Of a DNA stretch of 40,000 nt, positions 20,293 to 36,685 are shown in pieces. The notes beneath the pieces were generated by a model that made no database searches, was not told the DNA's origin, and was given only the letters and a program-made list of their open reading frames with translations. Numbering within the stretch: the first letter of the stretch is position 1; each line of letters begins with the position of its first letter. Location of the stretch: contig NZ_CP049864.1 in assembly GCF_011300685.1 (NCBI RefSeq), forward strand, positions 572,885 to 612,884, written 5' to 3'. Position numbers and translations under genes: made by a program. Source of the DNA: Lysobacter sp. HDW10. GTDB taxonomy: Bacteria > Pseudomonadota > Gammaproteobacteria > Xanthomonadales > Xanthomonadaceae.

Positions 20293-20361
20293 GCACCTTG
20301 TCCACTTGTGGATAAGGTGCCGCAAACGTTCGTTGAGAGGCGCTCTGAACTCAAGCGCCTC
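20293..20361. terminator. Two hairpins between convergent putA and intI (possible bidirectional terminator)
   Basis: GCACCTT (20293-20299) pairs with AAGGTGC (20314-20320). GAGGCGC (20337-20343) pairs with GCGCCTC (20355-20361). There is no clear U-tract. Confidence 0.3.
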
Positions 20362-21403
20362 ACGCATCCAAAGGACTCCGCACTGCCAATGCACCACGCC
20401 CCAATACGTGCGTGTAAATCTGCGTGGTCGCCAAGTCTTTGTGCCCCAATAGTTCCTGCACCGTTCGAATATCCTGGCCGGCTTCCAGCAGGTGCGTTGC
20501 AAATGCATGTCGCATTGAATGACAACTGGCAGGCTTGTCGATCTTTGCCTGCCGCACCGCCTGTTTGAACGCACGCTGCATGCTCGATTCGTGCAGGTGA
20601 TGCCGTCGGACCTCACCCGTCTCGACATCGGTCGCCAAGCGATCCGCGCAGAAAATGAACTGCCAAGCAAACTCTCTTGATGCGTTCGGATACTTTCGTG
20701 CAAGCGCATAGGGCAGATGCACACCGCCATACCCTGATGCGCAATCTTTGCTGTGCAGCAATCGCACGCATTCTATTTGTGACTTCAAGTGCGGGATCAA
20801 TATCTGGGGGAGCGGCACCCGACGATCTTTGCCGCCCTTTCCGTTCCGCACACGAATTTCATTCAGCGCAAAGTCGACATCTTTGACGCGAAGGCGCATC
20901 CCTTCCATCAAGCGCATGCCGGTGCCGTAAAGCAAAGAACCCAAGAGCCAATGTGTGCCATTCAAATGGCGGAGAATCAGACGCACCTCTTCTCTAGAAA
21001 GCACAACAGGCAATCGCTTCTGCTGGCGTGCCCGAACGAATCCCTCCATCCAAGGCAGCTGCATATTCAAGACGACGCGGTACAGAAACAACAACGCACA
21101 CAAGGCTTGGTTCTGAGTGCTGGGTGCGACGCCCATCTGTGCAGCCAAATAGGTGAGGAAGGCGCGGACTTCAGCCTCACCCATGGTGACCGGATGCCGA
21201 CGACCATTGAACCGAATGAATTTCTCAACCCAGACGAGATAGGCCTCAGAAGTACGCGGACTGTAGTTCCGACGCTTCATCTCCCATCGCACTTGGTCCA
21301 AGAGCCTCGGCGGCCGGACACCGACCTGAAGCGCCGGCACGACCGCCTGTGCGACATAATTCTGGGAATATCGATTTAGACTGCGGTGCGCGTCTTTTGC
21401 CAT
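20360..21403 (-). CDS. intI: Integron integrase (tyrosine recombinase IntI)
   Basis: 347 aa from ATG 21403; the track start at 21430 is TTG. Catalytic boxes GTGMRLMEGMRLRVKD, HSMRHAFATHLLEAG and LLGHKDLATTQIYTHV are present. The IntI-specific extra segment LPYALARKYPNASREFAWQFIFCA is also present. The gene is divergent from the cassette array. Confidence 0.92.
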   Translation of the reverse strand: MAKDAHRSLNRYSQNYVAQAVVPALQVGVRPPRLLDQVRWEMKRRNYSPRTSEAYLVWVEKFIRFNGRRHPVTMGEAEVRAFLTYLAAQMGVAPSTQNQALCALLFLYRVVLNMQLPWMEGFVRARQQKRLPVVLSREEVRLILRHLNGTHWLLGSLLYGTGMRLMEGMRLRVKDVDFALNEIRVRNGKGGKDRRVPLPQILIPHLKSQIECVRLLHSKDCASGYGGVHLPYALARKYPNASREFAWQFIFCADRLATDVETGEVRRHHLHESSMQRAFKQAVRQAKIDKPASCHSMRHAFATHLLEAGQDIRTVQELLGHKDLATTQIYTHVLGRGALAVRSPLDA

Positions 21404-21552
21404 GTAGAAACTCGTTTTGTCGTATAACAATGCGAGGAAGCAAAAGTGATGCGTATTGGAAAAGGGCGATTTATGTGTAGGGGAAGGTTGAAAGTGGGAA
21501 CCGGCTACATGCAGGCTCTTGGCTTATGCTGCTTTTCGGAATCGAAATAGAA

Positions 21553-21559
21553 GTTAGGC
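21553..21559 (+). other. attI-like recombination core (G/TTAGGC) marking the start of the first cassette
   Basis: This is the first GTTAGGC downstream of the divergent intI start (150 bp from ATG 21403). It is identical to the R' box of the best attC sites. The first cassette ATG (21586) follows. Confidence 0.55.
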
Positions 21560-21585
21560 CCCGCACAAAGAATCCGGAGCTCCGT

Positions 21586-22005
21586 ATGCATTCTTGGCTT
21601 TCTAAGATAGTCGGCCAGCCTCGGCGCGCCGAGACCCCGGACTTTGGCAAGCTCACCTACATGGGTGGCTATTGGGAGGGCGCGGGCATCTTCCCCCCGA
21701 CGCTGAGTGAGGTTGAGTACTTCGTTATTGCTGGCGATCTTGGGCCTTCTGATGCAAATCGGCGGGCGTTTCAGTTGATTTGCAGCAACTACGCCGAGCT
21801 ACTGGAAAATGCCGCCGCCGTGATTTCCAATGGGTCGAAAAGCACTGTCAAGGCAAGCGAGCTCAATGTGTCTAGTGTTGATGTTCCGGCCGGAGACCTG
21901 CACGCGGACAAATGGGAGATGAGCTTCTCCAGACGAGACGGCGCTTCGTTCGCAGTTGAGTACCGCGGGCTTGACGCAACAGGTACAGTAGATGTTTCGT
22001 ACTGA
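21586..22005 (+). CDS. Cassette 1: hypothetical cytoplasmic protein (139 aa)
   Basis: Start is taken at the first ATG after the attI core; the track extension to 21526 crosses attI. I recognised no motif. Confidence 0.6.
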   Translation: MHSWLSKIVGQPRRAETPDFGKLTYMGGYWEGAGIFPPTLSEVEYFVIAGDLGPSDANRRAFQLICSNYAELLENAAAVISNGSKSTVKASELNVSSVDVPAGDLHADKWEMSFSRRDGASFAVEYRGLDATGTVDVSY

Positions 22006-22017
22006 TTTTGGGGCGGA

Positions 22018-22130
22018 GCCTAACAGTTCGTTCAACCCGACATTCCTCCGTGGCACGTGACTGAGGCTTTGCGCTACGCTAGCCTCAGTCCCGCTCCACT
22101 ACGGCATGCGGGTTAACTCAGGCGTTAGGC
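22018..22130 (+). repeat. attC 1 (long family, 113 bp)
   Basis: R'' is GCCTAAC (22018-22024) and R' is GTTAGGC (22124-22130). There is an internal perfect hairpin GACTGAGGCT-N12-AGCCTCAGTC. Confidence 0.85.
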
Positions 22131-22138
22131 GGCATGAA

Positions 22139-22465
22139 ATGAACTTCAGCGATCTCCAACAGGCAGCAATCCAGCTAAACGACCTCTACGAACAAATGGA
22201 GGTCAAGCGCTGGGGTCGCGTGTGGACAACGCAGGAGTTGGCCTTGGGCTTCATGGGCGATGTAGGCGATCTGGCGAAACTGATTCAAGCTCACGTCGGT
22301 GTCCGCACCATCGAAGATCACCAAGGGAAACTCGGCCATGAATTGTCGGATTGCCTGTGGTCAATTATGGTTCTGGCCAACAAGTGCGGGGTTGACCTAG
22401 AGGCGGAGTTTCTTCGGAACACCCGAGAGATCTCCGAGTACGTCAAAAGCGAGCTCGCCAAGTAG
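22139..22465 (+). CDS. Cassette 2: MazG-like nucleotide pyrophosphohydrolase (all-alpha NTP-PPase)
   Basis: 108 aa. ELALGFMGDVGDLAKL and LGHELSDCLWSIMVLANKCGVDLE match the MazG/NTP-PPase helix pattern. The ATG lies 9 nt after attC 1. Confidence 0.7.
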   Translation: MNFSDLQQAAIQLNDLYEQMEVKRWGRVWTTQELALGFMGDVGDLAKLIQAHVGVRTIEDHQGKLGHELSDCLWSIMVLANKCGVDLEAEFLRNTREISEYVKSELAK

Positions 22466-22474
22466 TCGGTAGCC

Positions 22475-22534
22475 GCCTAACAATTCGTCCAAGCCGACGC
22501 CGCTTCGCGGCCCGGCTTAACTCAGGTGTAAGGT
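22475..22534 (+). repeat. attC 2 (short family, 60 bp)
   Basis: GCCTAACAATTCGTCCAAGCCGAC...CGGCTTAACTCAGGTGTAAGGT. The R' variant is GTAAGGT. Confidence 0.85.
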
Positions 22535-22545
22535 GTGAAGTGAGC

Positions 22546-23214
22546 ATGACACAACCTGTTCAACGCAGAATCAAACTCGCGCGGCTCTTAGCCATCGCCA
22601 CGATTTCCTTTGGCGTGCTGTTCTACACCATCGGAGCGGCGGTTAAGCCTGGTTATTCGCATTTCACACACTTCATTAGTGAACTCAATGCCACGGGCAC
22701 ACCTTGGGCAGTGCAACTCGGCCTAGCCGGCTTTGTGCCGCTTGGTCTACTCTTCGCCGCCTTCCTCGTGGCGGTAGCTCCAATCGCGCAGGTTCGCGGC
22801 ACAAGTCGTCTAGGGCTGTGGCTATTGTGGTCGCAGCCCATCGCATTTATCGGAGCCGCCATCGCGCCATGCGATGCGGGCTGTCCAACTGGCGGTTCGC
22901 CAATACAGATGGCCCATGACGTCCTCGGACTCGCCACGTACCTTCCCTGCACGCTGGCGTTAGTGCTGCTTTCATTCGCCCCAAATTTGTTATCTGGCTG
23001 GCGGCTGTTCCTGCGTTTTGCTGGCGTCGCGTGGCTAATCCTTTTTGTGGCCATGCTTCAACCTGAGGTCATGCATGTTCGCGGATTGCTCCAGCGGGTT
23101 GCGGACGCATTACTCGCTGCCGCCGTCCTCATCATCGCGTGGCGTATGGTGGACAACGCACTGGCCACACCTAACAATTCATTCAAAGCGAGGCCGCTTC
23201 GCGGCGCTGCTTAA
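22546..23214 (+). CDS. Cassette 3: DUF998-like polytopic membrane protein
   Basis: 222 aa, about 6 TM. YSHFTHFISELNATG resembles the DUF998 signature. The last 14 codons are encoded by attC 3. Confidence 0.6.
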   Translation: MTQPVQRRIKLARLLAIATISFGVLFYTIGAAVKPGYSHFTHFISELNATGTPWAVQLGLAGFVPLGLLFAAFLVAVAPIAQVRGTSRLGLWLLWSQPIAFIGAAIAPCDAGCPTGGSPIQMAHDVLGLATYLPCTLALVLLSFAPNLLSGWRLFLRFAGVAWLILFVAMLQPEVMHVRGLLQRVADALLAAAVLIIAWRMVDNALATPNNSFKARPLRGAA

Positions 23215-23228
23215 TTCAGGCGTTAGAC
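23169..23228 (+). repeat. attC 3 (short family, 60 bp)
   Basis: R'' is ACCTAAC (23169-23175) and R' is GTTAGAC (23222-23228). Confidence 0.85.
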
Positions 23229-23249
23229 CGCTCTGGAGGACCTTGTCTC

Positions 23250-23666
23250 GTGGAGATATCTGCCCATATCCGCAGCGGCTTAGACGTCCACGAGCTCGTC
23301 GTTTCAACCGACGGGAATTCGCGACCGCTCGTCATCTCTGCTAGGCCTTCCGGTCGAGGCAGTGCCGTTAGCGGCGGCGAGCTTCTGATGGCTGCACTCG
23401 CAACCTGCTACTGCAATGACTTGTACCGTGAAGCCTCCCGACTGAGTGTCGCGATCGCAGGCTGTGAGGTTCGGGTCCAGGGCTACTTCAACGGCGTTGG
23501 TCTTGCCGCGCAGAGCGTTACGTACTCAGCCGTCGTGGAGTCCTCAGCACCGGCGGCACAGGTCGAGGCTTTGCTGGCTGAGACGGATCGGCTGGCAGAG
23601 GTCCACAACACACTCAGGACCGGTTGCGCCGTCAACCGCGTTGCGTGGTATGGGCCCGCGGACTAA
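23250..23666 (+). CDS. Cassette 4: OsmC/Ohr family protein
   Basis: 138 aa with a GTG start. GGELLMAALATCYCNDL is the OsmC core with the conserved Cys. The stop codon lies inside the R'' box. Confidence 0.7.
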   Translation: MEISAHIRSGLDVHELVVSTDGNSRPLVISARPSGRGSAVSGGELLMAALATCYCNDLYREASRLSVAIAGCEVRVQGYFNGVGLAAQSVTYSAVVESSAPAAQVEALLAETDRLAEVHNTLRTGCAVNRVAWYGPAD

Positions 23667-23772
23667 CAATGCGTTCAAGCCGACAACCCTTGGTTACGCC
23701 AACCACATGGCAGAGAGAGCTTGCCATGTGGTTCGCTCCACGACGCGGCGCGGCTTAACTTAGGTGTTAGGG
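23661..23772 (+). repeat. attC 4 (long, 112 bp)
   Basis: R'' is GACTAAC and R' is GTTAGGG (23766-23772). The central perfect hairpin is CCACATGGCA-N9-TGCCATGTGG. Confidence 0.8.
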
Positions 23773-23775
23773 CCC

Positions 23776-24159
23776 ATGAGCAACATCGCCGCACTCCTGG
23801 CCACGAAGCGTGATTTCGCGCTCCTGCGTTGGGCCGGTGTGTTGTTCCTCGTTTGGCTCGGCTGCACGGGTCCTCTGCGCTGGCTAGCTGGCACAGTGCT
23901 CCCGCCGTGGTTTGTCGGCAGCGCGCCGAACTTCTTCGCCGGGCTCACGCTTACCTTCTGGCAGGCCTTCGCGGTGCCTTCGCGGCCATTGGGCTCGGCT
24001 GCCGTCGCTTTCGGGGTGCTGGCGCCCGTGGAAGCAATTCAAGTCTCCCTGCCGCAGCATCGCGCTGACCCGATCGATCTGATGGCAAGCCTTGTCGGCT
24101 GCTGTCTAGCCGCCGCGCTCTTGCATTGGCGCCGCCGCGTGGCCGAGCATGTGCCCTGA
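23776..24159 (+). CDS. Cassette 5: small membrane protein (127 aa), hypothetical
   Basis: Three to four TM helices. The C-terminal RADPIDLMASLVG is faintly VanZ/DUF2809-like. The ATG lies 4 nt after attC 4. Confidence 0.55.
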   Translation: MSNIAALLATKRDFALLRWAGVLFLVWLGCTGPLRWLAGTVLPPWFVGSAPNFFAGLTLTFWQAFAVPSRPLGSAAVAFGVLAPVEAIQVSLPQHRADPIDLMASLVGCCLAAALLHWRRRVAEHVP

Positions 24160-24213
24160 CAATTCGTTCAAGCCGATACCGCTTCGCAACGCGGCTTAAC
24201 TCAGGTGTTAGAT
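24154..24213 (+). repeat. attC 5 (short family, 60 bp)
   Basis: R'' is CCCTGAC (24154-24160) and R' is GTTAGAT (24207-24213). Confidence 0.8.
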
Positions 24214-24216
24214 TCC

Positions 24217-24533
24217 ATGGAGCACCACTCATCCGAGCCACCACACTCCTGTTAGCCCTGTTTTTGCCGATCTCCACGCTGCCGGCCGCTAAACCACCGA
24301 CCGAACCTGCTGCATTAAGAGTTCACCTCATGGAAACAAGTAAGGTTGTGGCAGTAGTGGACATCGAGGATCCATCGGCCGCCTTTAGAGACGACGGCGA
24401 CTCCGATTCGTTGCAGATAGTCTTTCTCTCCAAGAATTCAGGATGCCCAAGTCGGGTATCGCCAGGCGGCGAGGTCATCTTTCTCTATAAGACCGACGAT
24501 GACTTGCAAACCAAGCTCATCCGACGCAATTAG
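24217..24533 (+). pseudogene. Cassette 6: small secreted protein gene with an apparently frameshifted start
   Basis: ATG 24217 opens a 12-codon frame ending at TAG 24253-24255. The long frame (to 24533) encodes a signal-peptide-like LIRATTLLLALFLPISTLPAA but has no start codon before ATG 24330. Confidence 0.35.
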
Positions 24534-24570
24534 CTACACTCCACAGGTTGGCTTAATTCAAACGTTAGGG
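24497..24570 (+). repeat. attC 6 (atypical; only the 3' half is convincing)
   Basis: The 3' half GGCTTAATTCAAACGTTAGGG, with R' GTTAGGG at 24564-24570, is clear. The proposed R'' CGATGAC (24497-24503) is weak. Confidence 0.45.
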
Positions 24571-24575
24571 TGCGG

Positions 24576-25019
24576 ATGGAACATTTGTACGCAATTGCTT
24601 ACAGAAGCAAGGCAGCACGCGAGTTGACTTCGCAAGAGCTCGATCGCCTGTTGTTAGATGCCCGCACTTTTAATCAGAGGGCGAGTGTTACGGGCGTGCT
24701 TCTCTATCATGATGGTTCTTTCTTTCAGTTCTTCGAGGGTCCTGAGGAAGGCGTCGATGCCGTTTACCAGCGCATCCGCCCGGCGAGAACTCACACTAAT
24801 ATAGTTGAACTGTTGCGGGCTCCTTCTCGTTCACGACAATTTGAGTCCTGGCATATGGGATTCTGTGAAACGCCTGAGACCGAGCTGCAGACGCTTGCAA
24901 CCGCGTCTTGGGAAGAAGCAATGCCAATCACCCGTGTTAGCTATGAGCGCTCGGAGGGTCTTGGCTTGTTGCTGAATTATTGGAACAAATGGAAAGCCGA
25001 GCCGCACCCTAGCATTTGA
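24576..25019 (+). CDS. Cassette 7: short BLUF-domain blue-light photoreceptor (FAD-binding)
   Basis: 147 aa that aligns without gaps to the AppA/PixD BLUF core. Matching segments are LYAIAYRS (Tyr), TFNQRASVTGVLLY (Asn), FFQFFEG (Gln) and FESWHMGF (Trp/Met). Confidence 0.8.
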   Translation: MEHLYAIAYRSKAARELTSQELDRLLLDARTFNQRASVTGVLLYHDGSFFQFFEGPEEGVDAVYQRIRPARTHTNIVELLRAPSRSRQFESWHMGFCETPETELQTLATASWEEAMPITRVSYERSEGLGLLLNYWNKWKAEPHPSI

Positions 25020-25066
25020 ATCAAGCCGAAGCCGCTTCGCGGCTCGGCTTGATTCGGGCGTTAGAC
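25007..25066 (+). repeat. attC 7 (short variant, 60 bp)
   Basis: CCCTAGCATTTGAATCAAGCCGA...TCGGCTTGATTCGGGCGTTAGAC, with R' at 25060-25066. Confidence 0.75.
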
Positions 25067-25175
25067 TGCGCTGGCTCGCTCGCCCTATCGCCCTGCGTGA
25101 CAAGGTTTCTTGCAGGCTATGAACTAAGGTATCTGAAGCACTCGAAACAGAATTCTTTGTTTGATGGGGGGAAGA

Positions 25176-25574
25176 ATGCGTCGCATCTTACTATTTGGTT
25201 TTCTCATTCTTGCAACAACCCCAGCTTTCTCCCACGGCGGTCGCCTCAACAAATATGGCTGCCATAACGACAGAAGGACTGGCGGATACCACTGTCACAG
25301 ATCGGCAATGGCTCCTTCTGCGAATGCGCGTCGATCCCGCGACTCTGCCGGCGCACGGACTACACGTGCGAAGCGATACCGTGCTGAGGCTAAAAGCTTC
25401 GCTCGCGACAAGTACCGAAGTGCAAGGCAAAACACGCGCACGTTCGTTCGAGAGATCAGATACTTTGCCAATTGCTCCGAGGCACGCGCGCTTGGCGCGG
25501 CTCCTGTTCGACGCGGAGAACCCGGCTATGCTCGTCACCTTGATCGGGACAACGACGGCGTCGGATGTGAATAG
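25176..25574 (+). CDS. Cassette 8: secreted YHYH-domain / Excalibur calcium-binding domain protein
   Basis: Signal peptide MRRILLFGFLILATTPAFS. HGGRLNKYGCHNDRRTGGYHCH is the YHYH motif. The C-terminal CSEARALGAAPVRRGEPGYARHLDRDNDGVGCE is the Excalibur motif. GGGGGAAG lies ahead of the ATG. Confidence 0.75.
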   Translation: MRRILLFGFLILATTPAFSHGGRLNKYGCHNDRRTGGYHCHRSAMAPSANARRSRDSAGARTTRAKRYRAEAKSFARDKYRSARQNTRTFVREIRYFANCSEARALGAAPVRRGEPGYARHLDRDNDGVGCE

Positions 25575-25585
25575 CATCGTTCGCA

Positions 25586-25688
25586 ATCTAACAGTTCGTT
25601 CAACCCCACATACCTCCGTGGCACGTGACTGACGCTTTGCGCTACGCTAGCCGCAGTCCCGCACCACTGGTTAAGTGAGGCGTTAGGC
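25586..25688 (+). repeat. attC 8 (long family, 103 bp)
   Basis: R'' is ATCTAAC (25586-25592) and R' is GTTAGGC (25682-25688). It is a near copy of attC 1, including the TTTGCGCTACGCTAGCC core. Confidence 0.85.
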
Positions 25689-25716
25689 CGCATTTCGACC
25701 GCAAGGAATTTCAGGA

Positions 25717-26301
25717 ATGGATATGTCTGTAACGGAAGCGCAGTCTGATATGCGACAGGGCTACCGCAGCGGAGCTACTGGCATCTTGGCCTCCGCGCTT
25801 GCCTGGTTCACCGCAGCGGGCGTCGCAGCACTCACATCTCCCCAAAAAGGAATCTGGGCGCTTCTCATCGGTGGAATGCTCATCCATCCAGTAGGCCTGC
25901 TTATATGCAAGCTCTTGGGATCGCGCGGCACTCATACAAAGGGCAACCCGTTTGGTTTGCTCGCCGGAGCAAGCACTTTCTGGCTCATCTTCTGCCTTCC
26001 CATCGCCTACTTGCTTAGCGCGCTGCAATCGAACCTATTCTTCCCTGCCTTGCTCCTGATCATTGGCGGTCGCTACCTCGTGTTCGCCACCATCTATGGT
26101 ATGCGGCTCTATTGGGCTTTGGGGTTGGCGCTGGCCGGAGCGGGTTTCGCGTTGGCAAACATCAATGCCACTGCATCTGTGAGCGCCTTAGTTGGCGCAG
26201 TACTGGAGACGGTCTTTGCCATCGCCTGTTTGGGCCAACATCGTCGTTGGGCGCGGCCTAACAACTCATTCAAGCCGACACCGCTTCGCGGCGCGGATTA
26301 A
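25717..26301 (+). CDS. Cassette 9: polytopic membrane protein (194 aa), hypothetical
   Basis: Five to six TM helices with no recognised motif. The C-terminal ARPNNSFKPTPLRGAD is encoded by attC 9. Confidence 0.6.
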   Translation: MDMSVTEAQSDMRQGYRSGATGILASALAWFTAAGVAALTSPQKGIWALLIGGMLIHPVGLLICKLLGSRGTHTKGNPFGLLAGASTFWLIFCLPIAYLLSALQSNLFFPALLLIIGGRYLVFATIYGMRLYWALGLALAGAGFALANINATASVSALVGAVLETVFAIACLGQHRRWARPNNSFKPTPLRGAD

Positions 26302-30557: not shown

Positions 30558-30938
30558 ATGCAACGTGTGACTGGCATTGGTGGCATCTTCTTCAAGTCTA
30601 CGGACCCGAAAGCACTCAGTGCGTGGTACCGCGATCATCTTGGCCTGGACGTGTCGGACTGGGGTGGTGCCATCTTTCGTTGGGGTGGCTCAGACAGCCC
30701 CTCGGGAACGACCATCTGGAGTCCGTTCGCAGACGATACCAACTACATGGCGCCGAGCTCGGCGCCTTTCATGATCAACTTTCGCGTGGCCGACCTCGAT
30801 GCACTTCTCGCGGCGCTGCGTCTGGAGGGCTGCTCTGTTCTCGACAAGACCGATTCATCCGAACAAGGCAAGTTCGGGTGGGTCATTGATCCGGACGGCA
30901 ACAAGATCGAGCTGTGGCAACCACCTGCTGGGCAATGA
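30558..30938 (+). CDS. Cassette 18: VOC family (glyoxalase/bleomycin-resistance fold) protein
   Basis: 126 aa. IGGIFFKSTDPKALSAWYRDHLGL and GKFGWVIDPDGNKIELWQP are typical VOC beta-alpha-beta-beta-beta modules. Confidence 0.75.
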   Translation: MQRVTGIGGIFFKSTDPKALSAWYRDHLGLDVSDWGGAIFRWGGSDSPSGTTIWSPFADDTNYMAPSSAPFMINFRVADLDALLAALRLEGCSVLDKTDSSEQGKFGWVIDPDGNKIELWQPPAGQ

Positions 30939-30950
30939 GCAAGGGCCGCG

Positions 30951-31061
30951 GCCGAATAGTCCGTTCAATTTGAATCTGCGCTATTCCGCGAGTTGCGCAG
31001 AAGTAGAACGTCCCCCGCGATTGGCTACACTACGCGAATCCGGTTAACTCAGACCTTAGGT
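30951..31061 (+). repeat. attC 18 (long variant, 111 bp)
   Basis: GCCGAATAGTCCGTTCAA...TTGGCTACACTACGCGAATCCGGTTAACTCAGACCTTAGGT. R' is CTTAGGT, so the first G is lost. Confidence 0.55.
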
Positions 31062-31066
31062 CTCTA

Positions 31067-31423
31067 ATGAACGGTTGTCTCAAAAGCCTGGTTGTCTTGG
31101 CGCTGCTCGCGTTCTCGATGTCTGCCTTAGCCGGCAAAGCCCATCTCGGTTTCACCGTCCATTACACGCTCAAGCGCAGTGCCTTTGACGCGAAGCTTGA
31201 TCATGTCGTCGTGACCAAAGTCAAAGAGAACTCGCCCGCAATGCGCGCCGGGCTCATGCCAGGCGATGTCATTGAGGTTTTGAATGGCGCCGTGGTATCT
31301 GGCAATTCCGCACGCAAGCTCGACAATGAAATGGGTGCCGTCCAACCCGGTGACACCGTCAAGATGACCGTGTTGCGCTCTGGCAAAAGGATTGCCATCC
31401 GCATGGTTGCTGTTGAGAGCTAG
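31067..31423 (+). CDS. Cassette 19: secreted PDZ-domain protein
   Basis: Signal peptide ending SALAG. VTKVKENSPAMRAGLMPGDVIEVLNG...GDTVKMTVLRSGKRI is a PDZ pattern. Confidence 0.7.
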   Translation: MNGCLKSLVVLALLAFSMSALAGKAHLGFTVHYTLKRSAFDAKLDHVVVTKVKENSPAMRAGLMPGDVIEVLNGAVVSGNSARKLDNEMGAVQPGDTVKMTVLRSGKRIAIRMVAVES

Positions 31424-31470
31424 CAAATCATTAGGGCCGACGCGGCTTTAGGGCGAGGTCTAAGTTGAGT
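31418..31470 (+). repeat. attC 19 (divergent, boundaries uncertain)
   Basis: AGCTAGCAAATCATTAGGGCCGACGCGGCTTTAGGGCGAGGTCTAAGTTGAGT. The candidate R' is GTTGAGT at 31464-31470. Confidence 0.35.
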
Positions 31471-31565
31471 GTTTGGTCGTATGCCAATCGTCACCCGCAC
31501 ATGCAGCACTTACGCATTGCTTTACACGTCGACAACAGTACGGGCTCGCGCAACGGAATTTATTC

Positions 31566-32255
31566 ATGACCACTGAAAAGAACCTCGGCCGGCTAGCAGG
31601 TGCGCTGTATCTCGTCGTTGTTTTGACCGGCGTGTTCAGCCTGATGTATGTGCCTTCTCAGATCACGATTACGGATGACCCCGCTGCATCCGCGAACTCA
31701 ATAGTCGCGCATAGCGCCTTGTTCCGAGCCGGCATCGCAGCTTTCTTGATCAAGCAAGTTGCGTTTTTGCTGCTGCCGCTTGTGCTGTACAAACTCCTGC
31801 GCCCAGTGCAACAAAGCATTGCGGCGCTGATGGTCGCACTTGCTGTTGTGAGCGTGCCGATCGCGCTCGTCAGTTTGGCAAACAGGCTTGATGTACTCGA
31901 CATGCTCAATGGCCCACATAGCCAGGCGTTCACGCTTGAACAGCAGCAATCGCAGGCCATGCTTTCCCTCCATGCATATGGCAATGGCTTACTTGTGACA
32001 ACGCTTTTCTGGGGGCTTTGGTTACTCCCCTTCGGATACTTGGTATTGCGTTCAGGGTTTCTGCCAAAGATCCTTGGCGTGTTCCTGATTCTTGGCGGGC
32101 TTTGCTATGTGGCTCAAGTGTTCTGGGAAATTCTTTTGCCAGTAGTAGCTTTTCCGGACACCGTATTGCTGAGCGCCGCAATCGGGGAGATCGGCATTTG
32201 CCTATGGCTTCTCATCGTCGGTGTTGGCAAACGCCCGACTTTGAATTCACCCTAA
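31566..32255 (+). CDS. Cassette 20: DUF4386-like polytopic membrane protein
   Basis: 229 aa from ATG 31566. LAGALYLVVVLTGVFSLMYVPSQI and LFRAGIAAFLI match the DUF4386 pattern. Confidence 0.6.
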   Translation: MTTEKNLGRLAGALYLVVVLTGVFSLMYVPSQITITDDPAASANSIVAHSALFRAGIAAFLIKQVAFLLLPLVLYKLLRPVQQSIAALMVALAVVSVPIALVSLANRLDVLDMLNGPHSQAFTLEQQQSQAMLSLHAYGNGLLVTTLFWGLWLLPFGYLVLRSGFLPKILGVFLILGGLCYVAQVFWEILLPVVAFPDTVLLSAAIGEIGICLWLLIVGVGKRPTLNSP

Positions 32256-32302
32256 TGCTAGACAATGGAACAAGTTGATCTCCGGCATTCACCTCACTAG
32301 GC
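32250..32302 (+). repeat. attC 20 relic (53 bp)
   Basis: R'' is CCCTAAT (32250-32256) and R' is ACTAGGC (32296-32302). L' GGCATTCACCTCAC compares with the consensus GGCTTAACTCAGG. Confidence 0.4.
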
Positions 32303-32309
32303 GACATTG

Positions 32310-32492
32310 ATGGCATTCAAACCGAAGCGTTACACATTAGTCGCGCCGTATCTTTCAGTGAGTGCCGCGCAAGAAACGGTTGATTTTTTGGGCAAAGCGC
32401 CGGATCAAGCAGATGACACCGACAAACGCGGCGGGTTCCAACATGCAGGCGGTGCGACCTGGTGGGTGAGCACACAAATGGATGAGGCTTAA
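32310..32492 (+). pseudogene. Internally deleted VOC/PhnB-like gene remnant
   Basis: 60 aa. FKPKRYTLVAPYLSVSAAQETVDFLGKA looks like a VOC N-terminus and GGFQHAGGATWWVSTQMDE like a VOC C-terminus. About 70-80 intervening residues are missing. Confidence 0.4.
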
Positions 32493-32500
32493 CAACTTAT

Positions 32501-32872
32501 ATGGAAACGTTTCTCTATTTGGCAGCATTTCTCGCTGCTGCGCTGGGCGTTGCGCACTCCGTACTTGGCGAGAAGTACATTCTTGTTCGGCTCTTCCGTC
32601 GCGATAATTTGCCCAAGCTCTTTGGCGGCACCACATTCACCACCGGCACACTGCGCTTTACGTGGCATATCACCACGGTTGCATGGTTTGGATTTGCTGC
32701 GCTGCTTTTTCATGCAGGCCGCGGCGACTTGAATACTACCGGCGTGCTGAAAATTGTGGGTACCACCTTCATCGCATCTGGCTTCCTTCCGCTTTTCATT
32801 ACGCGCGGCAGGCATTTGTCTTGGCTGGTACTGTTCTGCATCGGCGGCATTGCACTCTGGGGCGCGGCTTGA
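32501..32872 (+). CDS. Four-TM membrane protein (123 aa), hypothetical
   Basis: Regular TM pattern. It starts 8 nt after the remnant above, with no attC in between. Confidence 0.55.
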   Translation: METFLYLAAFLAAALGVAHSVLGEKYILVRLFRRDNLPKLFGGTTFTTGTLRFTWHITTVAWFGFAALLFHAGRGDLNTTGVLKIVGTTFIASGFLPLFITRGRHLSWLVLFCIGGIALWGAA

Positions 32873-32977
32873 CGCCAACCTTGGCACGCGATGAACGCTG
32901 ATTCCGAGGACAGCGCGGAAGGCCAGCTCGCATCTTGAAGTTGGCTACACTACGCGAATCGGACTCAGGCATTGGGT
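32867..32977 (+). repeat. attC 21 (long variant, 111 bp)
   Basis: R'' is GCTTGAC (32867-32873). The 3' module TTGGCTACACTACGCGAATC is identical to attC 18. R' is ATTGGGT, so the crossover G is lost. Confidence 0.55.
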
Positions 32978-32997
32978 CTAGTTCACTGGAGGCGCCT

Positions 32998-33330
32998 ATG
33001 CGATTCGCTGTCAGCTTTGTCGCTTTCCTGCTGCTGACGGGTTGCGCCACCCTTCCGGAAGACAACGGCGAGCATCCGATTCCAAACGGTGCTGCCGTAG
33101 CCCAATCCGTCGAGTTGTGTAAAACCCGAATTGCTGAGCTCAGAGCACGACTGGGTGAGCCGAGTCGTGAGGGCGTTCTTGGGCGCGCTCGCATCACCAC
33201 TTGGGTGGTGGCTTGGGATCCTTTGACGAAATATCTGGGCGTCATGACCAACGACTCGGGTACGGTGGTTGACGTCTACTGGGACCTGCCTTCTGAGGTG
33301 ACTTGGGCGCCGACTGATCGATGCAAGTGA
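32998..33330 (+). CDS. Small lipoprotein (110 aa), BamE/SmpA-OmlA-like by pattern
   Basis: MRFAVSFVAFLLLTGC carries the lipobox LTGC, with GGAGG 6 nt upstream. It is the first gene of a two-gene cassette. Confidence 0.65.
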   Translation: MRFAVSFVAFLLLTGCATLPEDNGEHPIPNGAAVAQSVELCKTRIAELRARLGEPSREGVLGRARITTWVVAWDPLTKYLGVMTNDSGTVVDVYWDLPSEVTWAPTDRCK

Positions 33331-33341
33331 GTCACGGCAAC

Positions 33342-33965
33342 ATGCGCGCGCTATTTGTTCACGGCCTGGGCCGCACGCCACTTTCAAGCTGGCCATTACT
33401 TTTGCAGCTTCGACGCGCCGGCTTTGCGACAGACACGTTTGGCTATTTCGCAGCTGCACAGAGTTTCGCTCAGATACGGGAGCGGCTCACTGCAAAGGTC
33501 ACGATGCTTGCTGCGCGGGATGATGGGTACGTGTTGATTGGACACTCATTGGGCGGCGTTCTGATTCGCGCGGCGGTCAATGCGCTTCCGCCCGGCACAC
33601 CGCAACCGAGTCATGTCTTCTTGCTCGGTTCACCCATTCGAGCGTCTCGACTCGCTCAGAAGTTACAGAATAACCTCGTCTTCCGCGTGGTATCGGGCGA
33701 TTGCGGGCAACTGCTCGGCTCTGAAAATAGAATGCAAGAGATCCATGCACTCTCAGCGCCGACAACGAGCATTGTTGGCGATCGTGGCATTGCTTCCACG
33801 CATGGTCCTTTTGCAGGTGAAGCGAACGACAGTATTGGTCCAGTGTCGGAAGCAACGGCTGATTGGTTCACTGCGCAGGTTCGGATTCCGTGCATCCACA
33901 CCCTGCTTCCAGCCAGTCGACGTGTGGGTAAGATCATCATCGAAAGCATGGGCATGGCGAATTAG
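33342..33965 (+). CDS. Alpha/beta-fold hydrolase (esterase/lipase-like)
   Basis: It has the nucleophile elbow GHSLGG, an N-terminal FVHGLG oxyanion region and a C-terminal His in IPCIHTLLP. The alternative start ATG 33321 overlaps the lipoprotein gene by 10 nt. Confidence 0.7.
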   Translation: MRALFVHGLGRTPLSSWPLLLQLRRAGFATDTFGYFAAAQSFAQIRERLTAKVTMLAARDDGYVLIGHSLGGVLIRAAVNALPPGTPQPSHVFLLGSPIRASRLAQKLQNNLVFRVVSGDCGQLLGSENRMQEIHALSAPTTSIVGDRGIASTHGPFAGEANDSIGPVSEATADWFTAQVRIPCIHTLLPASRRVGKIIIESMGMAN

Positions 33966-34074
33966 CCAATCATCCAAATGCCTGGCTCGTTGCCATGGCG
34001 CACGCGTTCGGCTTTGCGCTACGCTAGCGTCTGTTCCGCGCCACTTTGGGATGCGGGCCAATTTGGGCTTCGGC
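33959..34074 (+). repeat. attC 22 (long-family relic)
   Basis: The central GGCTTTGCGCTACGCTAGCG matches attC 1 and 8. The ends are degenerate: R'' is GAATTAG and R' is CTTCGGC (34068-34074). Confidence 0.5.
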
Positions 34075-34142
34075 CATCAGTCGCGGGGAGCAACGGCTTG
34101 AAGATATGGACAGCACTACTGGGGAAATCCGGTCTGGGAAAA

Positions 34143-34529
34143 ATGACCGCCCGTGAGTACGAAGCAAATCTCAACGGTTTGAATATGTTCTTCGGCGCGG
34201 TACTGGGTTTCGTTCTAGCCGGCACAGAAAAGCTGACCGATCTTCAGTTCGGGGTCGTTCTTTTCTTCCTCGCTTGTACCGTGATCACGATTCTGTTTAT
34301 TTCATCAAGCCGACATCGCGTCATGTATGCCGTGCTTGCGCTGGTGTATTCCGCGAGCTTCCCGGAGATGACTGACTATGTTCTGCGAGGACATGATTTG
34401 GTGTCAGGAAAGCTTCGCCCCACACTCCTTGTATGGACGGCGATGACCATCATGGTTGAGTTCTGGGCGCGCGATAAGGCGCCGGTTGCGGATGCAGCCA
34501 CGATTGCGGACGAAAGCGCCGCTTCGTAA
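34143..34529 (+). CDS. Four-TM membrane protein (128 aa), hypothetical
   Basis: Start is taken at the first ATG after the attC relic (MTAREYEANLNGLNMFFGAVLGFVLAG). Confidence 0.5.
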   Translation: MTAREYEANLNGLNMFFGAVLGFVLAGTEKLTDLQFGVVLFFLACTVITILFISSSRHRVMYAVLALVYSASFPEMTDYVLRGHDLVSGKLRPTLLVWTAMTIMVEFWARDKAPVADAATIADESAAS

Positions 34530-34573
34530 CGCGGATTGTCCACGGCAAGCGACACGCACTTCAACGTTTAAAC
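34524..34573 (+). repeat. attC 23 (short, divergent, 50 bp)
   Basis: TCGTAAC (34524-34530) ... CTTCAACGTTTAAAC (to 34573). Its 3' end is similar to attC 10 and 12. Confidence 0.4.
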
Positions 34574-34587
34574 ACAAAGGCAAACAC

Positions 34588-34782
34588 ATGCAGCCCTCAA
34601 AACCGAAGCAGTACAAACCTGGGCGCGCCGTTGCGGTCGGCCTCATCCTCGGAACGTTCGCCGGCATTGTGTTGCATAAGCTCGCATTGGGCATTATTTG
34701 CGGCTTGATCATTGGTTTGGCTGTAGATGCCCGTAAACGAAAGACAGCGTCGGATAGCACGCTAGATGGAAATGATGGTTGA
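34588..34782 (+). CDS. Small glycine-zipper-like membrane protein (64 aa)
   Basis: MQPSKPKQYKPGRAVAVGLILGTFAGIVLHKLALGIICGLIIGLAV has two short Gly-rich helices. Confidence 0.45.
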   Translation: MQPSKPKQYKPGRAVAVGLILGTFAGIVLHKLALGIICGLIIGLAVDARKRKTASDSTLDGNDG

Positions 34783-34864
34783 CCTGCCAAATGGCAAACT
34801 TGACGATACTGGCGTTGTCGTTCGCACTTTTGCGAAGCACAAGACGTTTTAGATAGAGAAGCCC

Positions 34865-35203
34865 ATGGAACCCATTTCGTTTGACGACTTCATGAAAGTG
34901 GAGCTTCGTGTTGGCAAGATCATCGATGCAAGCGTGTTCAAAGAGGCACGAAAGCCAGCCTACATTCTGCACGTCGATTTCGGCGACGAGATCGGCGTCA
35001 AGAAATCCAGCGCGCAGATTACGGCGCTTTATCAGCCCGAAGCACTTATTGGCAGGCTTGTTCTTGCGGTCGTCAACTTTCCCCGCAAGCAGGTGGGCCC
35101 GCTGATGTCGGAATGTCTGGTTACCGGCTTTCACAACGAGAACGGTGAGGTTTCGCTCTGCGTACCAGACAAGGCTGTTCCACTCGGCACACGCTTGTTG
35201 TAG
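34865..35203 (+). CDS. csaA: tRNA-binding domain protein / chaperone CsaA
   Basis: 112 aa. FMKVELRVGKIIDASVFKEARKPAYILHVDFGDEIGVKKSSAQIT and VNFPRKQVGPLMSECLVTG match CsaA/Trbp111. Confidence 0.85.
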   Translation: MEPISFDDFMKVELRVGKIIDASVFKEARKPAYILHVDFGDEIGVKKSSAQITALYQPEALIGRLVLAVVNFPRKQVGPLMSECLVTGFHNENGEVSLCVPDKAVPLGTRLL

Positions 35204-35238
35204 CGACGCCGCATAGGCCCGCAAACTTGGTATTGGTC
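35198..35238 (+). repeat. Possible attC relic
   Basis: TTGTAGC sits at the stop codon. GGTATTGGTCTAG resembles the GGCATTGGGTCTAG 3' end of attC 21. Confidence 0.3.
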
Positions 35239-35320
35239 TAGGTCTTTCGTCTAGTGACCATATGCACGCTCTCAACCGCGCAGCACATTGGATGCTAGCG
35301 CTTCGAACGGAGCCAGTGCC

Positions 35321-35746
35321 ATGTCCCAACTTGAAGACATCCAAATTCCGACCAAGGTAAAACTGAGCTTGCTTTGGACCTGCACGATTCTCTGCTACTT
35401 GTATTGCGACTACTTCGGCCTGTACGTGCCCGGGAAGATCAGCGGGATCATGGCGGGGAAGGCGGACCCGCTAGGCGCCATCACCCAATCGAGCCTGCTT
35501 GCCATGGGCATGTTGCTGTTGGTGCCTTGCTTGATGGTGGCCGCAAGCATCTTTCTGAAACCGCAGTATTCGCGCTGGATGAATCTCATCGTCGGGGCGA
35601 TTTACACGATCCTTATGGCCGCCATCGCCGTGACCGTTAGCTGGACGTTCTACCGGATTTACGCTGGTGCAGAAGTACTCCTGACGCTCACGATTGTCTT
35701 GGTTGCTTGGCGCTGGCCGAGGGTGGGCGTTCCGACGACTCGGTGA
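35321..35746 (+). CDS. DUF6326-like four-TM membrane protein
   Basis: 141 aa from ATG 35321. KVKLSLLWTCTILCYLYCDYFGLY resembles the DUF6326 N-terminal pattern. Confidence 0.55.
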   Translation: MSQLEDIQIPTKVKLSLLWTCTILCYLYCDYFGLYVPGKISGIMAGKADPLGAITQSSLLAMGMLLLVPCLMVAASIFLKPQYSRWMNLIVGAIYTILMAAIAVTVSWTFYRIYAGAEVLLTLTIVLVAWRWPRVGVPTTR

Positions 35747-35848
35747 CGCCGCTGAGCTGTTGAATGGCGCTGTAGTTTCCGGCCGAGTGACGCCTTAAGA
35801 TTGACCTGCTGCGCGCTTCCAAAAGGCGTCTTGTCAGTCGCGTCACGG
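35741..35848 (+). repeat. attC-like element (108 bp)
   Basis: The terminal inverted boxes are CGGTGACGC (35741-) and GCGTCACGG (-35848). The internal inverted repeat is GACGCCTT/AAGGCGTC. The next ATG follows 11 nt later. Confidence 0.4.
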
Positions 35849-35858
35849 TGGAGCACAC

Positions 35859-36212
35859 ATGAAAAACGACTTTCGCATTCCGCTCATGAGCGTCTCAAAG
35901 GTCTATCCCGCCTATGTCGCCAAGGCGGAGCGGAAGAACCGCACCAAAGCGGAAGTCGATCAGCTCATTTGCTGGCTCACCGGATATAGTCAGTCGCAGT
36001 TGGACAAGCAGCTGAAGAAAGACATCAACTTCGAATCATTCTTTGCTGAGGCACCTGCCCTTCACCCCAACAGCGCACGCATTTGCGGTGTCATTTGCGG
36101 TGTGCGCGTCGAGGACATTGAAGATCCGACTGTTCAGCTCGCGAGGCGTCTGGATAAGATCATTGACGAACTCGCGAAAGGCAAAACACTCGAGAAGATC
36201 ATGCGTCAATGA
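35859..36212 (+). CDS. DUF2200 domain protein
   Basis: 117 aa. [29 protein letters not shown] and [14 protein letters not shown] match the DUF2200 family pattern. Confidence 0.75.
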
Positions 36213-36248
36213 CGATCTGATTGCACTTAGACAAAAAACGGACGCAGC

Positions 36249-36638
36249 GTGCTCAAGACCTACATAAGAGATCTCAAACCCGGAAAGATAACGCTTTGGT
36301 GTTATCTCATTTGGTATCTGGTAACGGTCATTCTGTACTTTGATCCGCAACCTCGGATTTGGATCAACTCACTCGGCATCAGCGCGATCATTGGCACGGC
36401 GCTTCTGTTAAGCGTGAAGAAGGGTGCGGAGACGGATCACTGGCAGACCTTCAGACTTTTCATGATGCCGTTTGGTGTGTCCAGTTTCGCTGCACTCATT
36501 AAGAGCAAAGGCTTCTATTTGGTCTTTCCTTCCAATCTCCAACATCTGGGCGTGCTCATCGGCGCCTGCCTGTCGTTTCTGCTGATCGTTGGTTTACTGA
36601 AAGGGTGGATGGCGCCGCATGATGAAGCGGGCGCCTAA
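36249..36638 (+). CDS. Four-TM membrane protein (129 aa), hypothetical
   Basis: GTG start 36 nt after the DUF2200 gene, with no attC between them. Confidence 0.5.
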   Translation: MLKTYIRDLKPGKITLWCYLIWYLVTVILYFDPQPRIWINSLGISAIIGTALLLSVKKGAETDHWQTFRLFMMPFGVSSFAALIKSKGFYLVFPSNLQHLGVLIGACLSFLLIVGLLKGWMAPHDEAGA

Positions 36639-36685
36639 GCGGGTGGGCATTTAGCCAATAAGCGGCCACGGGCATCCGCTTAGCT
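36633..36685 (+). repeat. attC-like relic (53 bp)
   Basis: GCCTAAGCGG...CCGCTTAGCT. The R''-like box is GCCTAAG and the R'-like box is CTTAGCT, each one base away from GCCTAAC and GTTAGC. Confidence 0.4.

Follow-up and report, generated by a model that had tools for sequence, protein, structure and literature searches.

The window, by which we mean the whole 40,000-nucleotide stretch analysed from Lysobacter sp. HDW10, a member of the Lysobacteraceae, carries an integron integrase gene next to putA. The latter (17121–20285, plus strand) encodes a bifunctional proline dehydrogenase/P5C dehydrogenase, recognised by the Pfam families PRODH, Pro_dh-DNA_bdg, Pro_dh and Aldedh. It is followed, after a gap of 74 bp, by the convergent (tail-to-tail) intI (20360–21403, minus strand); the element does abut putA, as the original prediction had it. 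Beyond intI lie an attI region and a run of small plus-strand open reading frames (ORFs). The GC content shifts only slightly, from ~0.58 to ~0.55.

The COX operon–putA synteny is conserved among relatives, and the order COX operon–putA–intI is common to HDW10, the related locus L016 and L. soyae, whose PutA is 93% identical to that of HDW10. At a further related locus, L017, the position of putA is taken by a large ORF cut by the contig end. The integron is missing at putA in a relative whose PutA is 81% identical, where a FadL-like gene directly follows putA. Since the integrons of related genera sit beside mfd (Lysobacter sp. 13A) or a TonB-dependent receptor (Pseudoxanthomonas wuyuanensis), the putA location is in itself not remarkable.

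The integrase and its attachment site

The intI ORF encodes 347 aa, running without interruption from the ATG at 21403 to a stop-inclusive end at 20360, and its translation contains all four peptide motifs on which the gene had originally been described as intact-looking. The product scores 470 bits against TIGR02249 (cutoff 265), which makes it a full-length integron integrase, and matches QIK80634.1 of Lysobacter sp. HDW10 at 100% identity. The protein aligns full-length with the Vibrio cholerae integrase VchIntIA (PDB 2A3V), over 312 residues (E 7e-96), with R164, K189, H295, R298, H321 and Y330 corresponding to the catalytic R135, K160, H267, R270, H293 and Y302. The IntI-specific segment, including its W and HH, is also kept in this alignment. 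The counterpart of VchIntIA P232, which we take to be one of several residues contacting extrahelical bases, is Val in HDW10 IntI, and this counts against the integron reading. The ORF is also full-length in L016, L017, L. soyae and further metagenome and Logan clusters. A simple consensus scan of 21000–21700 gave no sigma-70-like Pc or Pint promoter. HDW10 IntI is presumably catalytically active and expressed, and we infer that a promoter drives the cassettes.

The attI region (21437–21559, plus strand) ends in the core GTTAGGC (21553–21559), found where it had been predicted, 150 bp from the intI ATG. Compared with L016 (IntI 99% identical), the window is near-identical up to ...GAAATAGAAGTTAGGC and unrelated beyond, and in L017 and L. 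soyae the conservation runs to AAGTTAG before the sequences diverge. Aligning the locus across relatives, a check proposed with the original prediction, thus yields four related putA–intI platforms that can be aligned to AAGTTAG, each with a different first cassette; cassettes are replaced from strain to strain at this point. Such comparisons identify GTTAGGC (21553–21559) as the attI crossover. We would note that the differences in first cassette between strains could in principle stem from homologous recombination within conserved flanks instead of from IntI.

An imperfect 27-nt palindrome, ACTCGTTTTGTCGTATAACAATGCGAG (21410–21436), directly precedes the intI start codon. The four putA-linked platforms agree at 26 of its 27 positions, with a single G-to-A change in L. 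soyae; the attI sequence flanking it diverges among the same four. Its 14-nt core is confined to putA-linked loci among the 23 loci compared, and the integrons of Lysobacter sp. 13A and Pseudoxanthomonas lack the 27-nt palindrome. We regard it as a candidate operator or 5'-UTR element.

Proximal cassettes and the attC family

Ten cassettes, all on the plus strand, follow attI. Cassette 1 (21554–22124) has an ORF (21587–22005) with no Pfam match and a 113-nt attC (22018–22130; 58 bits, E 5e-14 with the order-level attC covariance model, hereafter R2), the bottom strand of which folds into a hairpin of -35.3 kcal/mol (z -7.7). Cassette 2 (22125–22528) combines an ORF (22139–22465) that is weakly MazG-like, its match being below threshold, with a 60-nt attC (22475–22534; R2 81.5 bits). 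This cassette is shared between genera: it recurs in the Lysobacter sp. 13A integron with 88% aa identity, while the two IntI are ~63% identical, and the homology starts exactly at GTTAGGC and stops inside attC. Cassette 3 (22529–23222) encodes a DUF998 membrane protein (Pfam; attC 23169–23228, R2 68 bits), and cassette 4 (23223–23766) an OsmC-like protein (ORF 23250–23666, Pfam OsmC) with a 112-nt attC (23661–23772; R2 52 bits, hairpin z -5.0). The ORF of cassette 5 (23767–24207; attC 24154–24213, R2 76 bits) has no assigned function. In cassette 6 (24208–24564), the ORF ends at 24533 and only the right half (L'/R') of an attC can be recognised, ending at 24570; it scores 22.6 with the right-half position-weight matrix, and the full-length covariance match is sub-threshold. 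A BLUF blue-light sensor (ORF 24570–25019, Pfam BLUF 7e-26) occupies cassette 7 (24565–25060; attC 25007–25066, R2 69 bits). Cassette 8 (25061–25682) holds an ORF (25161–25574) with a C-terminal Excalibur domain (Pfam) and a 103-nt attC (25586–25688; R2 31 bits, E 3e-6), and cassette 9 (25683–26309) a DUF7010 ORF (25717–26301, Pfam; attC 26256–26315, R2 74 bits). Cassette 10 (26310–27215; attC 27160–27221, R2 53 bits) is probably two fused cassettes. It contains an ORF (26548–26846) with no family match, which from a reading of its sequence only we take to be a lipoprotein, a DUF2164 ORF (26892–27146, Pfam) and, within the cassette, a truncated attC remnant (26853–26879) with a sub-threshold R2 score of 14 bits. 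The expectation of plus-strand cassettes of mostly unknown function is borne out.

The 60-bp repeat family is likewise real, comprising six near-identical 60-bp copies plus longer variants. The window has eight copies of the motif GTTAGGC where 2.4 would be expected, with seven of the eight within 21553–27166. R2 and the window-derived model R1 were built from the window and its relatives rather than taken from the independent IntegronFinder model, a point that weighs against the integron reading. R2 gave 10 hits with E<=3e-6. They fall on the plus strand, from 22018 to 29497, and the array holds all of them; two marginal sites extend the span to 22018–31477, within which a position-weight scan adds about six half or truncated sites. 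The family is absent from 1–21000, where the best covariance match has E about 1, and no attC-like site was found with the covariance model from 31477 to the window end. The original estimate of about 25 cassettes is therefore too high, 25 being close to the number of ORFs. Nor is the claim confirmed that an attC-like repeat follows most ORFs: the ten solid and two marginal sites are joined only by the half or truncated ones and by two clear eroded remnants.

As to structure, R/L-box cells are paired in 78.5% of cases, compared with 11–52% when the partner is slid, and two L-box pairs show compensatory changes. The bottom strands of the proximal attCs fold with an R box, an unpaired spacer and a bulged L box (z -2.5 to -7.7). 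By these features, namely paired R and L boxes, a bulged base and a bottom-strand hairpin, the 60-bp repeat is a true attC. In Lysobacter sp. 13A and P. wuyuanensis, all arrays detected by R1 lie on the cassette side of intI, and R1 found none in the integron-free relative L019. Its 60-nt hits in the first two score 74–87 bits, in agreement with the original assignment to a Xanthomonadales/Lysobacterales attC type.

Erosion of the array and the distal segment

A degenerate-cassette zone follows at 27216–29497 (plus strand). It starts with a weak 47-nt attC-like site (27328–27374; position-weight scan) and an ORF (27390–27911), followed by two orphan attC halves, a left one at 27912 and a right one that ends at 28313, both recognised by half-site scores. 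After a second ORF (28336–28626), a degenerate attC (28618–28730) folds no better than shuffled sequences. An ORF with HTH_3 (Pfam) and membrane parts then runs to 29443, overlapping a good attC (29438–29497; R2 48 bits) that has a mutated R' core, GTAGTGG. Three eroding ORF–attC pairs occupy 29498–31477 on the same strand: a DUF4019-like ORF (29596–30402, Pfam below threshold) with attC 30397–30524, a partial R2 match only; a glyoxalase-family ORF (30558–30938, Pfam) with attC 30951–31061 (R2 E 0.006); and a PDZ ORF (31067–31423, Pfam) with an attC-like site at 31418–31477 (R2 E 0.02). None of these three sites folds as a hairpin better than shuffles.

The next part, 31478–34572 (plus strand), contains a DUF4386 ORF, three ORFs without annotated function and an alpha/beta-hydrolase ORF, and gives no covariance-model match. 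Alignment to intact long attCs nevertheless reveals eroded long-type remnants at 32872–32982 and 33966–34078 and a possible one at 34497–34572, with conserved central segments and mutated or deleted R and L boxes; an exact 20-nt repeat is common to 31021–31040 and 32941–32960. The fossils thus extend to ~34.1 kb and possibly to ~34.6 kb. Structurally sound attCs that look competent for recombination are confined to the promoter-proximal 6–8 kb (about 10 cassettes), sites that look functional at all to roughly the first 10 kb of the array, and the distal sites are eroded.

From 34573 to 40000, small plus-strand accessory ORFs continue, with Pfam matches to tRNA_bind, DUF6326, DUF2200, LprI, DUF1275, DUF488 and SMR/Gdx (the last at 39610–39930), and the run goes on past the window end. 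The right end proposed originally, 36685, is not upheld, since no attC-like site was found by model after 31477 and the small ORFs run past 40000. That the distal half has no recognisable attC counts against its membership of the integron. The ORFs that start at ~34.6 kb and continue past 40 kb may represent cassettes of great age, or else a distinct accessory segment. That they lie outside the integron, in a separate accessory or ordinary chromosomal region co-oriented by chance, is a serious alternative, which we rate at somewhat under even odds. It accords with the lack of any kind of attC signal in 34573–40000 (position-weight scan and covariance model) and with the generic, small housekeeping-like families encoded. 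Against it, the segment is contiguous with fossil attCs reaching ~34.1–34.6 kb, consists uniformly of small ORFs on one strand, and belongs to the stretch that begins at putA and lasts until synteny picks up again on the FadL side. Furthermore, the best 120 matches of the DUF1275 protein (100% in HDW10, then 87%, then <=72%) include none named L. soyae, although PutA is 93% identical there. We infer that the distal ORFs without attC are former cassettes.

Interpretation and comparison with known systems

We conclude, with a probability of about 0.92, that Lysobacter sp. HDW10 carries a sedentary chromosomal integron in this region. The label 'sedentary' is often reserved for integrons with more than 19 attCs; the 10–12 found here fall short of this and count against the term. 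The term as originally applied is supported by the putA–intI–attI junction, which is conserved in four platforms including L. soyae. The same conservation makes it very improbable that a mobile integron on a transposon, ICE or genomic island landed recently beside putA, even though the region is accessory relative to the relative with 81% PutA identity and integron location varies between Lysobacteraceae genera. The intI–attI platform lies beside putA wherever the neighbour was identified (HDW10, L016, L. soyae), over distances of 93% PutA identity (HDW10 versus L. soyae) and with IntI as little as 81% identical. The ORFs screened against Pfam include no genes for a transposase, tni or conjugation, and the small GC shift also argues against a recent arrival. 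Still harder to sustain, to the point of being nearly negligible, is the view that the repeats are REP-like or of another type scattered between genes, with no connection to the recombinase next to them. They are indeed short imperfect palindromes between genes, but all have one orientation, they are missing from the 21 kb left of intI and from the sequence after 31.5 kb, in three other genomes every member of the family lies to the cassette side of an intI, and repeats bound the cassette common to another genus.

A relic, in which an intI of intact sequence would be silent or inactive, the array static, and the strain differences ancient or due to homologous recombination, is unlikely, if less so than the two preceding explanations. 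Functionally, such a relic would amount to a group of attCs lying beside intI by chance. The promoter scan, the erosion and lack of folding of most attCs beyond ~28 kb, and the frequent inactivity of Xanthomonadales integrons would fit such a relic. However, full-length intI with its catalytic residues is kept in at least four diverged platforms (IntI identity 81% to 99%, L. soyae left out), which argues for purifying selection; a strain with 99% IntI identity and near-identical attI has another first cassette, the break falling exactly at the crossover core; and ten proximal attCs are structurally sound.

Following what is established for integrons, namely those of class 1 and VchIntIA, a mechanism can be proposed for the sedentary integron. 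IntI, a tyrosine recombinase, would recognise the folded bottom strand of attC hairpins through their paired R and L boxes and extrahelical G. It would recombine attC with attI at G|TT of GTTAGGC (21553), so that new promoterless cassettes would enter at the array head on the plus strand, and would excise cassettes through attC x attC recombination. By the comparisons above, the platform (intI, attI and the 27-nt palindrome) was inherited vertically beside putA in the HDW10/L. soyae clade; cassettes turn over and are exchanged with other Lysobacteraceae. With distance from attI, attC erosion grows, as seen in half sites, mutated R' cores and the lack of a hairpin, and distal cassettes are therefore probably frozen as ordinary chromosomal genes.

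Xanthomonas chromosomal integrons are ilvD-linked with intI mostly inactivated (Gillings et al. 2005, PNAS 102:4419; bioRxiv 10.1101/2025.06.18.660453), in agreement with the original prediction. They resemble the present integron in belonging to the same bacterial order and in their vertically inherited chromosomal platform, strain-specific arrays, cassettes mostly of unknown function and loss of recognisable attCs from some array genes. The Xanthomonadales-type attC is a further likeness, the model used here having been tested on Lysobacter and Pseudoxanthomonas arrays, not on Xanthomonas. In contrast, the HDW10 integron lies beside putA rather than ilvD, its intI is intact whereas that of Xanthomonas is frameshifted or deleted, and its IntI is only ~62% identical to that of the Xanthomonas lineage ([Pseudomonas] boreopolis). 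The integrons of Lysobacter sp. 13A/Novilysobacter and P. wuyuanensis share the 60-nt and ~112-nt attC types (the latter at 50–62 bits with R1), are oriented in the same way with respect to intI and have at least one cassette in common, but differ in their IntI (~63–64% identical), their neighbours (mfd and the TonB-dependent receptor gene) and an attI without the 27-nt palindrome. Compared with the V. cholerae superintegron, that of HDW10 is far smaller (10–12 recognisable attCs versus about 180), has a different attC family, and shows no toxin-antitoxin cassettes in the window; a non-rigorous search recognised no LexA box in it. The two are alike in architecture, sedentary nature, homogeneous attC repeats, identical catalytic residues and presumed mechanism. 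The HDW10 integron, itself undescribed before, belongs to a well-known kind, of which it is an unexceptional example.

Integrase and insertion point

The element in the window is a real integron and was correctly recognised as such in the original prediction, its intI, attI and attC sites each having the expected features. It was already implicit in GenBank, where a protein 100% identical over 347 aa to the HDW10 integrase (QIK80634.1, in a record of 2,177,853 bp) is labelled ‘integron integrase’ and adjoins PutA QIK80633.1; no description of the HDW10 integron was found in the searchable literature. A scan of genome contigs with the single IntI sequence returned relatives of at most 58% identity, mostly from Acidobacteriota and Verrucomicrobiota, and missed HDW10 itself.

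By translation, intI (20360–21403, minus strand) encodes 347 aa with no stop inside, and all the peptide motifs quoted in the original prediction are found in it. In the family model search, TIGR02249 (‘integron integrase’) scored 470 bits on this protein (cutoff 265), and the XerC and XerD models scored far under threshold. Residues 35–346 align to VchIntIA (PDB 2A3V) with an E-value of 7e-96. Counted along this alignment, the RKHRHY set is kept, with R164, K189, H295, R298, H321 and Y330 corresponding to R135, K160, H267, R270, H293 and Y302 of 2A3V. The IntI-specific additional segment, ALARKYPNASREFAWQFIF, aligns with the VchIntIA insert, with the W of EFAWQF and the RRHH motif conserved. 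One substitution falls at P232 of VchIntIA, one of the residues touching the extrahelical bases; the HDW10 IntI has Val there. Since the motifs, score, catalytic residues and IntI-specific insert are retained in an unbroken ORF, the sequence supports the description of the integrase as apparently intact, and we infer that the enzyme is catalytically active.

The attI core GTTAGGC lies at 21553–21559, 150 bp from the intI ATG, as originally placed. Its function as the entry point of new cassettes emerges from four putA-linked platforms, namely the window, L016 (an ENA metagenome contig with intI beside putA, IntI 99% identical), L017 (a Logan contig, IntI 81%) and L. soyae (intI of 347 aa; PutA falling within the same 90% cluster, with 93% identity to its representative). 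From intI through ...GAAATAGAAGTTAGGC, L016 and the window are near-identical; directly past that they are unrelated. In L017 and L. soyae conservation extends to AAGTTAG with divergence after. Thus, in the locus comparison, the breakpoint sits at AAGTTAG|GC in all four. The comparison downstream of putA proposed in the original prediction gave four different first cassettes: a 139-aa ORF with no assigned function in HDW10; a 125-aa ORF in L016; a Gp49 (HigB-like) and HTH_3 (HigA-like) toxin-antitoxin pair in L017 (692–1298); and a 351-aa DUF8426 and Mrr_cat (restriction-endonuclease-like) protein in L. soyae (14517–15572). Insertion by IntI at G|TT would yield just this pattern. We regard the comparative data as decisive in pinning the predicted attI crossover without experiment, and the pair whose IntI are 1% apart shows cassette turnover between strains. 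The first cassette of L. soyae is of unusual size and may have a role in defence; downstream of it are two attC sites (15585–15694 and 16157–16269).

attC sites and cargo

In the 60-nt attC, 5 nt separate R'' (GCCTAAC) from L'' (GTTCAAGCC); a short GC stem leads on to L' (GGCTTAAC), and after 6 nt comes R' (GTTAGGC). A C bulges out of L'' on the top strand and corresponds to an extrahelical G on the bottom one. Across 13 sites, the R/L cells are 78.5% paired, compared with 11–52% with slid partners; this slide control is informative, and a shuffle control is not, as the R/L columns hardly vary. In two L-box pairs the changes are compensatory, G-C being replaced by C-G in four sites and by A-T in two. 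The bottom strands of 22018–22130, 22475–22534, 23661–23772 and 25586–25688 form the expected hairpin, with z of −2.5 to −7.7. Similarity among the sites is high, with a mean column identity of 84% among six 60-nt sites, and the long sites have a common central segment. The repeats are therefore imperfect palindromes of the layout R''-L''...L'-R'; they have a GTTRRRY core and an extrahelical base, and lie in a single orientation within a few kb of intI.

The attC models were built in this analysis and are not those of IntegronFinder. A covariance model (CM) from six window sites only gave 24 matches (50–87 bits) in four other loci, those of Lysobacter sp. 13A, Pseudoxanthomonas wuyuanensis, L016 and L017, all on the cassette side of intI. 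It found no attC in L019, an integron-free relative, and in a search of two Acidobacteriota loci no match had an E-value below 0.04. The original assignment to the Xanthomonas attC type holds at the order level, in that Lysobacter sp. 13A and Pseudoxanthomonas share the type and the host belongs to Lysobacteraceae; the link to Xanthomonas itself is tentative and follows the order-level classification. The first CM was narrow, based on six 60-nt sites, and did not detect the long attCs; an order-level model (R2) was built instead from 31 sites of five sources, using R and L pairs only and run with filters off. Because RNAalifold on the mixed-length attCs did not recover the R/L structure, the structure was imposed by hand. 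An Rfam search of the window gave no match, and simple pairing-rule scanners for R/L boxes, which returned either zero or hundreds of chance matches across the window, were abandoned.

Pfam searches left most ORFs of the cargo as DUFs or without a match. The families found were DUF998, OsmC-like, BLUF, Excalibur, DUF7010, DUF2164, HTH_3, glyoxalase, PDZ, DUF4386, alpha/beta hydrolase, tRNA_bind, DUF6326, DUF2200, LprI, DUF1275, DUF488 and SMR. The recognisable array holds no transposase, toxin-antitoxin pair or resistance cassette, and the cargo no evident resistance or virulence gene except an SMR-family transporter outside that array. The latter, a 106-aa small multidrug/guanidinium-type protein (39610–39930), lies at the far end of the accessory run with no attC nearby. 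The BLUF (blue-light FAD sensor) protein at 24570–25019 forms a cassette with a good attC and is unusual as sensory cargo. The toxin-antitoxin first cassette of L017 has no counterpart of its kind in the HDW10 window. Two successive plus-strand ORF fragments in different frames at 38936–39309 (...CEGCEAVFDG...EPGSR and TYYIDDIMFTDD...NIPGY) resemble a single gene disrupted by a frameshift or an internal deletion, an idea that no Pfam match at 38950–39309 supported.

One cassette is shared across hosts. Cassette 2 (22125–22528), with a 108-aa, weakly MazG-like ORF, recurs in Lysobacter sp. 13A (2970–3424 of that locus) at 88% aa identity, the two IntI being about 63% identical. The DNA homology begins exactly at GTTAGGCGGCATGA, covers the ORF together with the left portion of the attC, and ends where the two attCs part, that of the window being 60 nt long and that of sp. 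13A 112 nt. The case shows that cassettes are exchanged between genera of the order.

Extent of the array

R2 found 10 sites in the window with E ≤ 3e-6, starting at 22018, 22475, 23169, 23661, 24154, 25007, 25586, 26256, 27160 and 29438, the first 465 bp past attI. Two more were marginal (30951–31061, E 0.006; 31418–31477, E 0.02), and elsewhere in the window, outside 22018–31477, nothing scored better than E 0.9. Half-site position-weight matrices (PWMs) gave orphan right halves ending at 24570, 28313 and 29613, an orphan left half at 27912, a shortened attC (26853–26879), a 47-nt site (27328–27374) and degenerate attCs at 28618–28730 and 30397–30524. The distal sites at 28618, 30397, 30951 and 31418 fold no better than shuffled sequence. 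Further on, 32872–32982 and 33966–34078 match the central parts of intact long attCs with their R and L boxes mutated or deleted, and 34497–34572 is a possible third remnant. Past the remnants, to 40000, neither PWM nor CM gave an attC signal, though small plus-strand ORFs go on; a Logan contig overlapping the right end extends the run at least 0.8 kb past the window, with DUF1304 and an ORF that, by eye only, is Rnk-like.

The attC signal being absent distally while ORFs continue, the ‘about 25 cassettes’ of the original prediction is a count of ORFs, and its right end at 36685 is no boundary. The 10 solid and 2 marginal sites fall short of the more than 19 reportedly in common use as the threshold for a sedentary integron; with half sites and fossils added, the total is about 19–21. 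Such erosion from proximal to distal attCs is a caution for cassette counting, ORF-based counts overestimating the mobile part of an array. An 81%-PutA relative has a FadL-like gene directly after putA, and since none of that downstream gene set occurs in the window, the entire stretch right of putA is accessory with respect to that relative. Among the best 120 hits of the DUF1275 protein, HDW10 itself stands at 100%, a Logan contig at 87% and the others at ≤72%, none named L. soyae. Overall, the comparison leans towards the distal ORF run being part of the variable region.

Some 400 bp separate the left half at 27912 from the right half ending at 28313, and between the two lies a 113-aa ORF on the antisense strand (28031–28372); they may represent a single attC that was interrupted, or a pair of decayed cassettes. 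The best attC-like match outside the array, 17861–17894 inside putA (left-half PWM 15.9), was judged to be chance at a CM E-value of about 1.

Upstream palindrome, location and comparison with other integrons

Directly upstream of the intI start codon, at 21410–21436, lies a 27-nt imperfect palindrome, ACTCGTTTTGTCGTATAACAATGCGAG. It is kept at 26 of 27 positions in the four platforms while the adjoining attI sequence diverges. The integrons examined in Lysobacter sp. 13A and Pseudoxanthomonas lack it, and an exact-match metagenome scan for it returned nothing. Its possible roles include those of an operator and of a 5'-UTR element. LexA boxes are of the type CTGT-N8-ACAG in E. coli and TTAG-N6-TACTA in Xylella/Xanthomonas. 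Judged by eye only, the palindrome has the spacing TGT-N6-ACA and fits neither. A crude sigma-70 consensus scan of 21000–21700 found no promoter (Pc). LexA of Xanthomonadales, according to the literature, works without the E. coli box, and loss of the integrase has been proposed as a consequence.

Two wider readings may be offered, to which, taken jointly, we give rather low odds. The palindrome might be a lineage-specific operator acting in place of the LexA control that Xanthomonadales lack, which, if true, would explain why intI is intact in this clade and decaying in Xanthomonas. The array, for its part, might record cassette domestication in progress, along a gradient from recombination-competent attCs by attI, via half and unfoldable sites, to attC-less former cassettes that would have become fixed as chromosomal genes. 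If domestication is indeed under way, the small 2.18 Mb genome would offer a natural time series of integron cargo assimilation.

The left 17 kb of the window is core sequence (UbiA, COX15, SURF1, COX3, CtaG, COX1, COX2, putA), syntenic with relatives. The intI-attI unit has a fixed location in the lineage of HDW10, L016, L017 and L. soyae, beside putA in three of the four; in L017 the ORF beside intI is cut by the contig end. The 74-bp spacer (20286–20359) between the convergent stops of putA and intI contains a GC-rich inverted repeat, GAGGCGCT...AGCGCCTC, a possible bidirectional terminator; the L. soyae spacer measures only 16 bp.

In Xanthomonas, intI lies downstream of ilvD, most copies are inactivated and some array genes have no recognisable attC (Gillings et al. 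2005, PNAS 102:4419; bioRxiv 10.1101/2025.06.18.660453), in agreement with what the original prediction said of the ilvD neighbour and of frequent intI inactivation. In contrast, the HDW10 intI neighbours putA, and there is no ilvD in the window. Other Lysobacteraceae integrons sit beside mfd or a TonB-dependent receptor, and the putA site is therefore a lineage peculiarity and no surprise. The present case corrects the original picture towards a smaller recognisable array, an erosion gradient and an undefined right end, and leaves the understanding of integrons unchanged. It does give Lysobacteraceae a clean example of a chromosomal integron that is apparently live, in a group whose best-studied relatives, in Xanthomonas, mostly have dead integrases.
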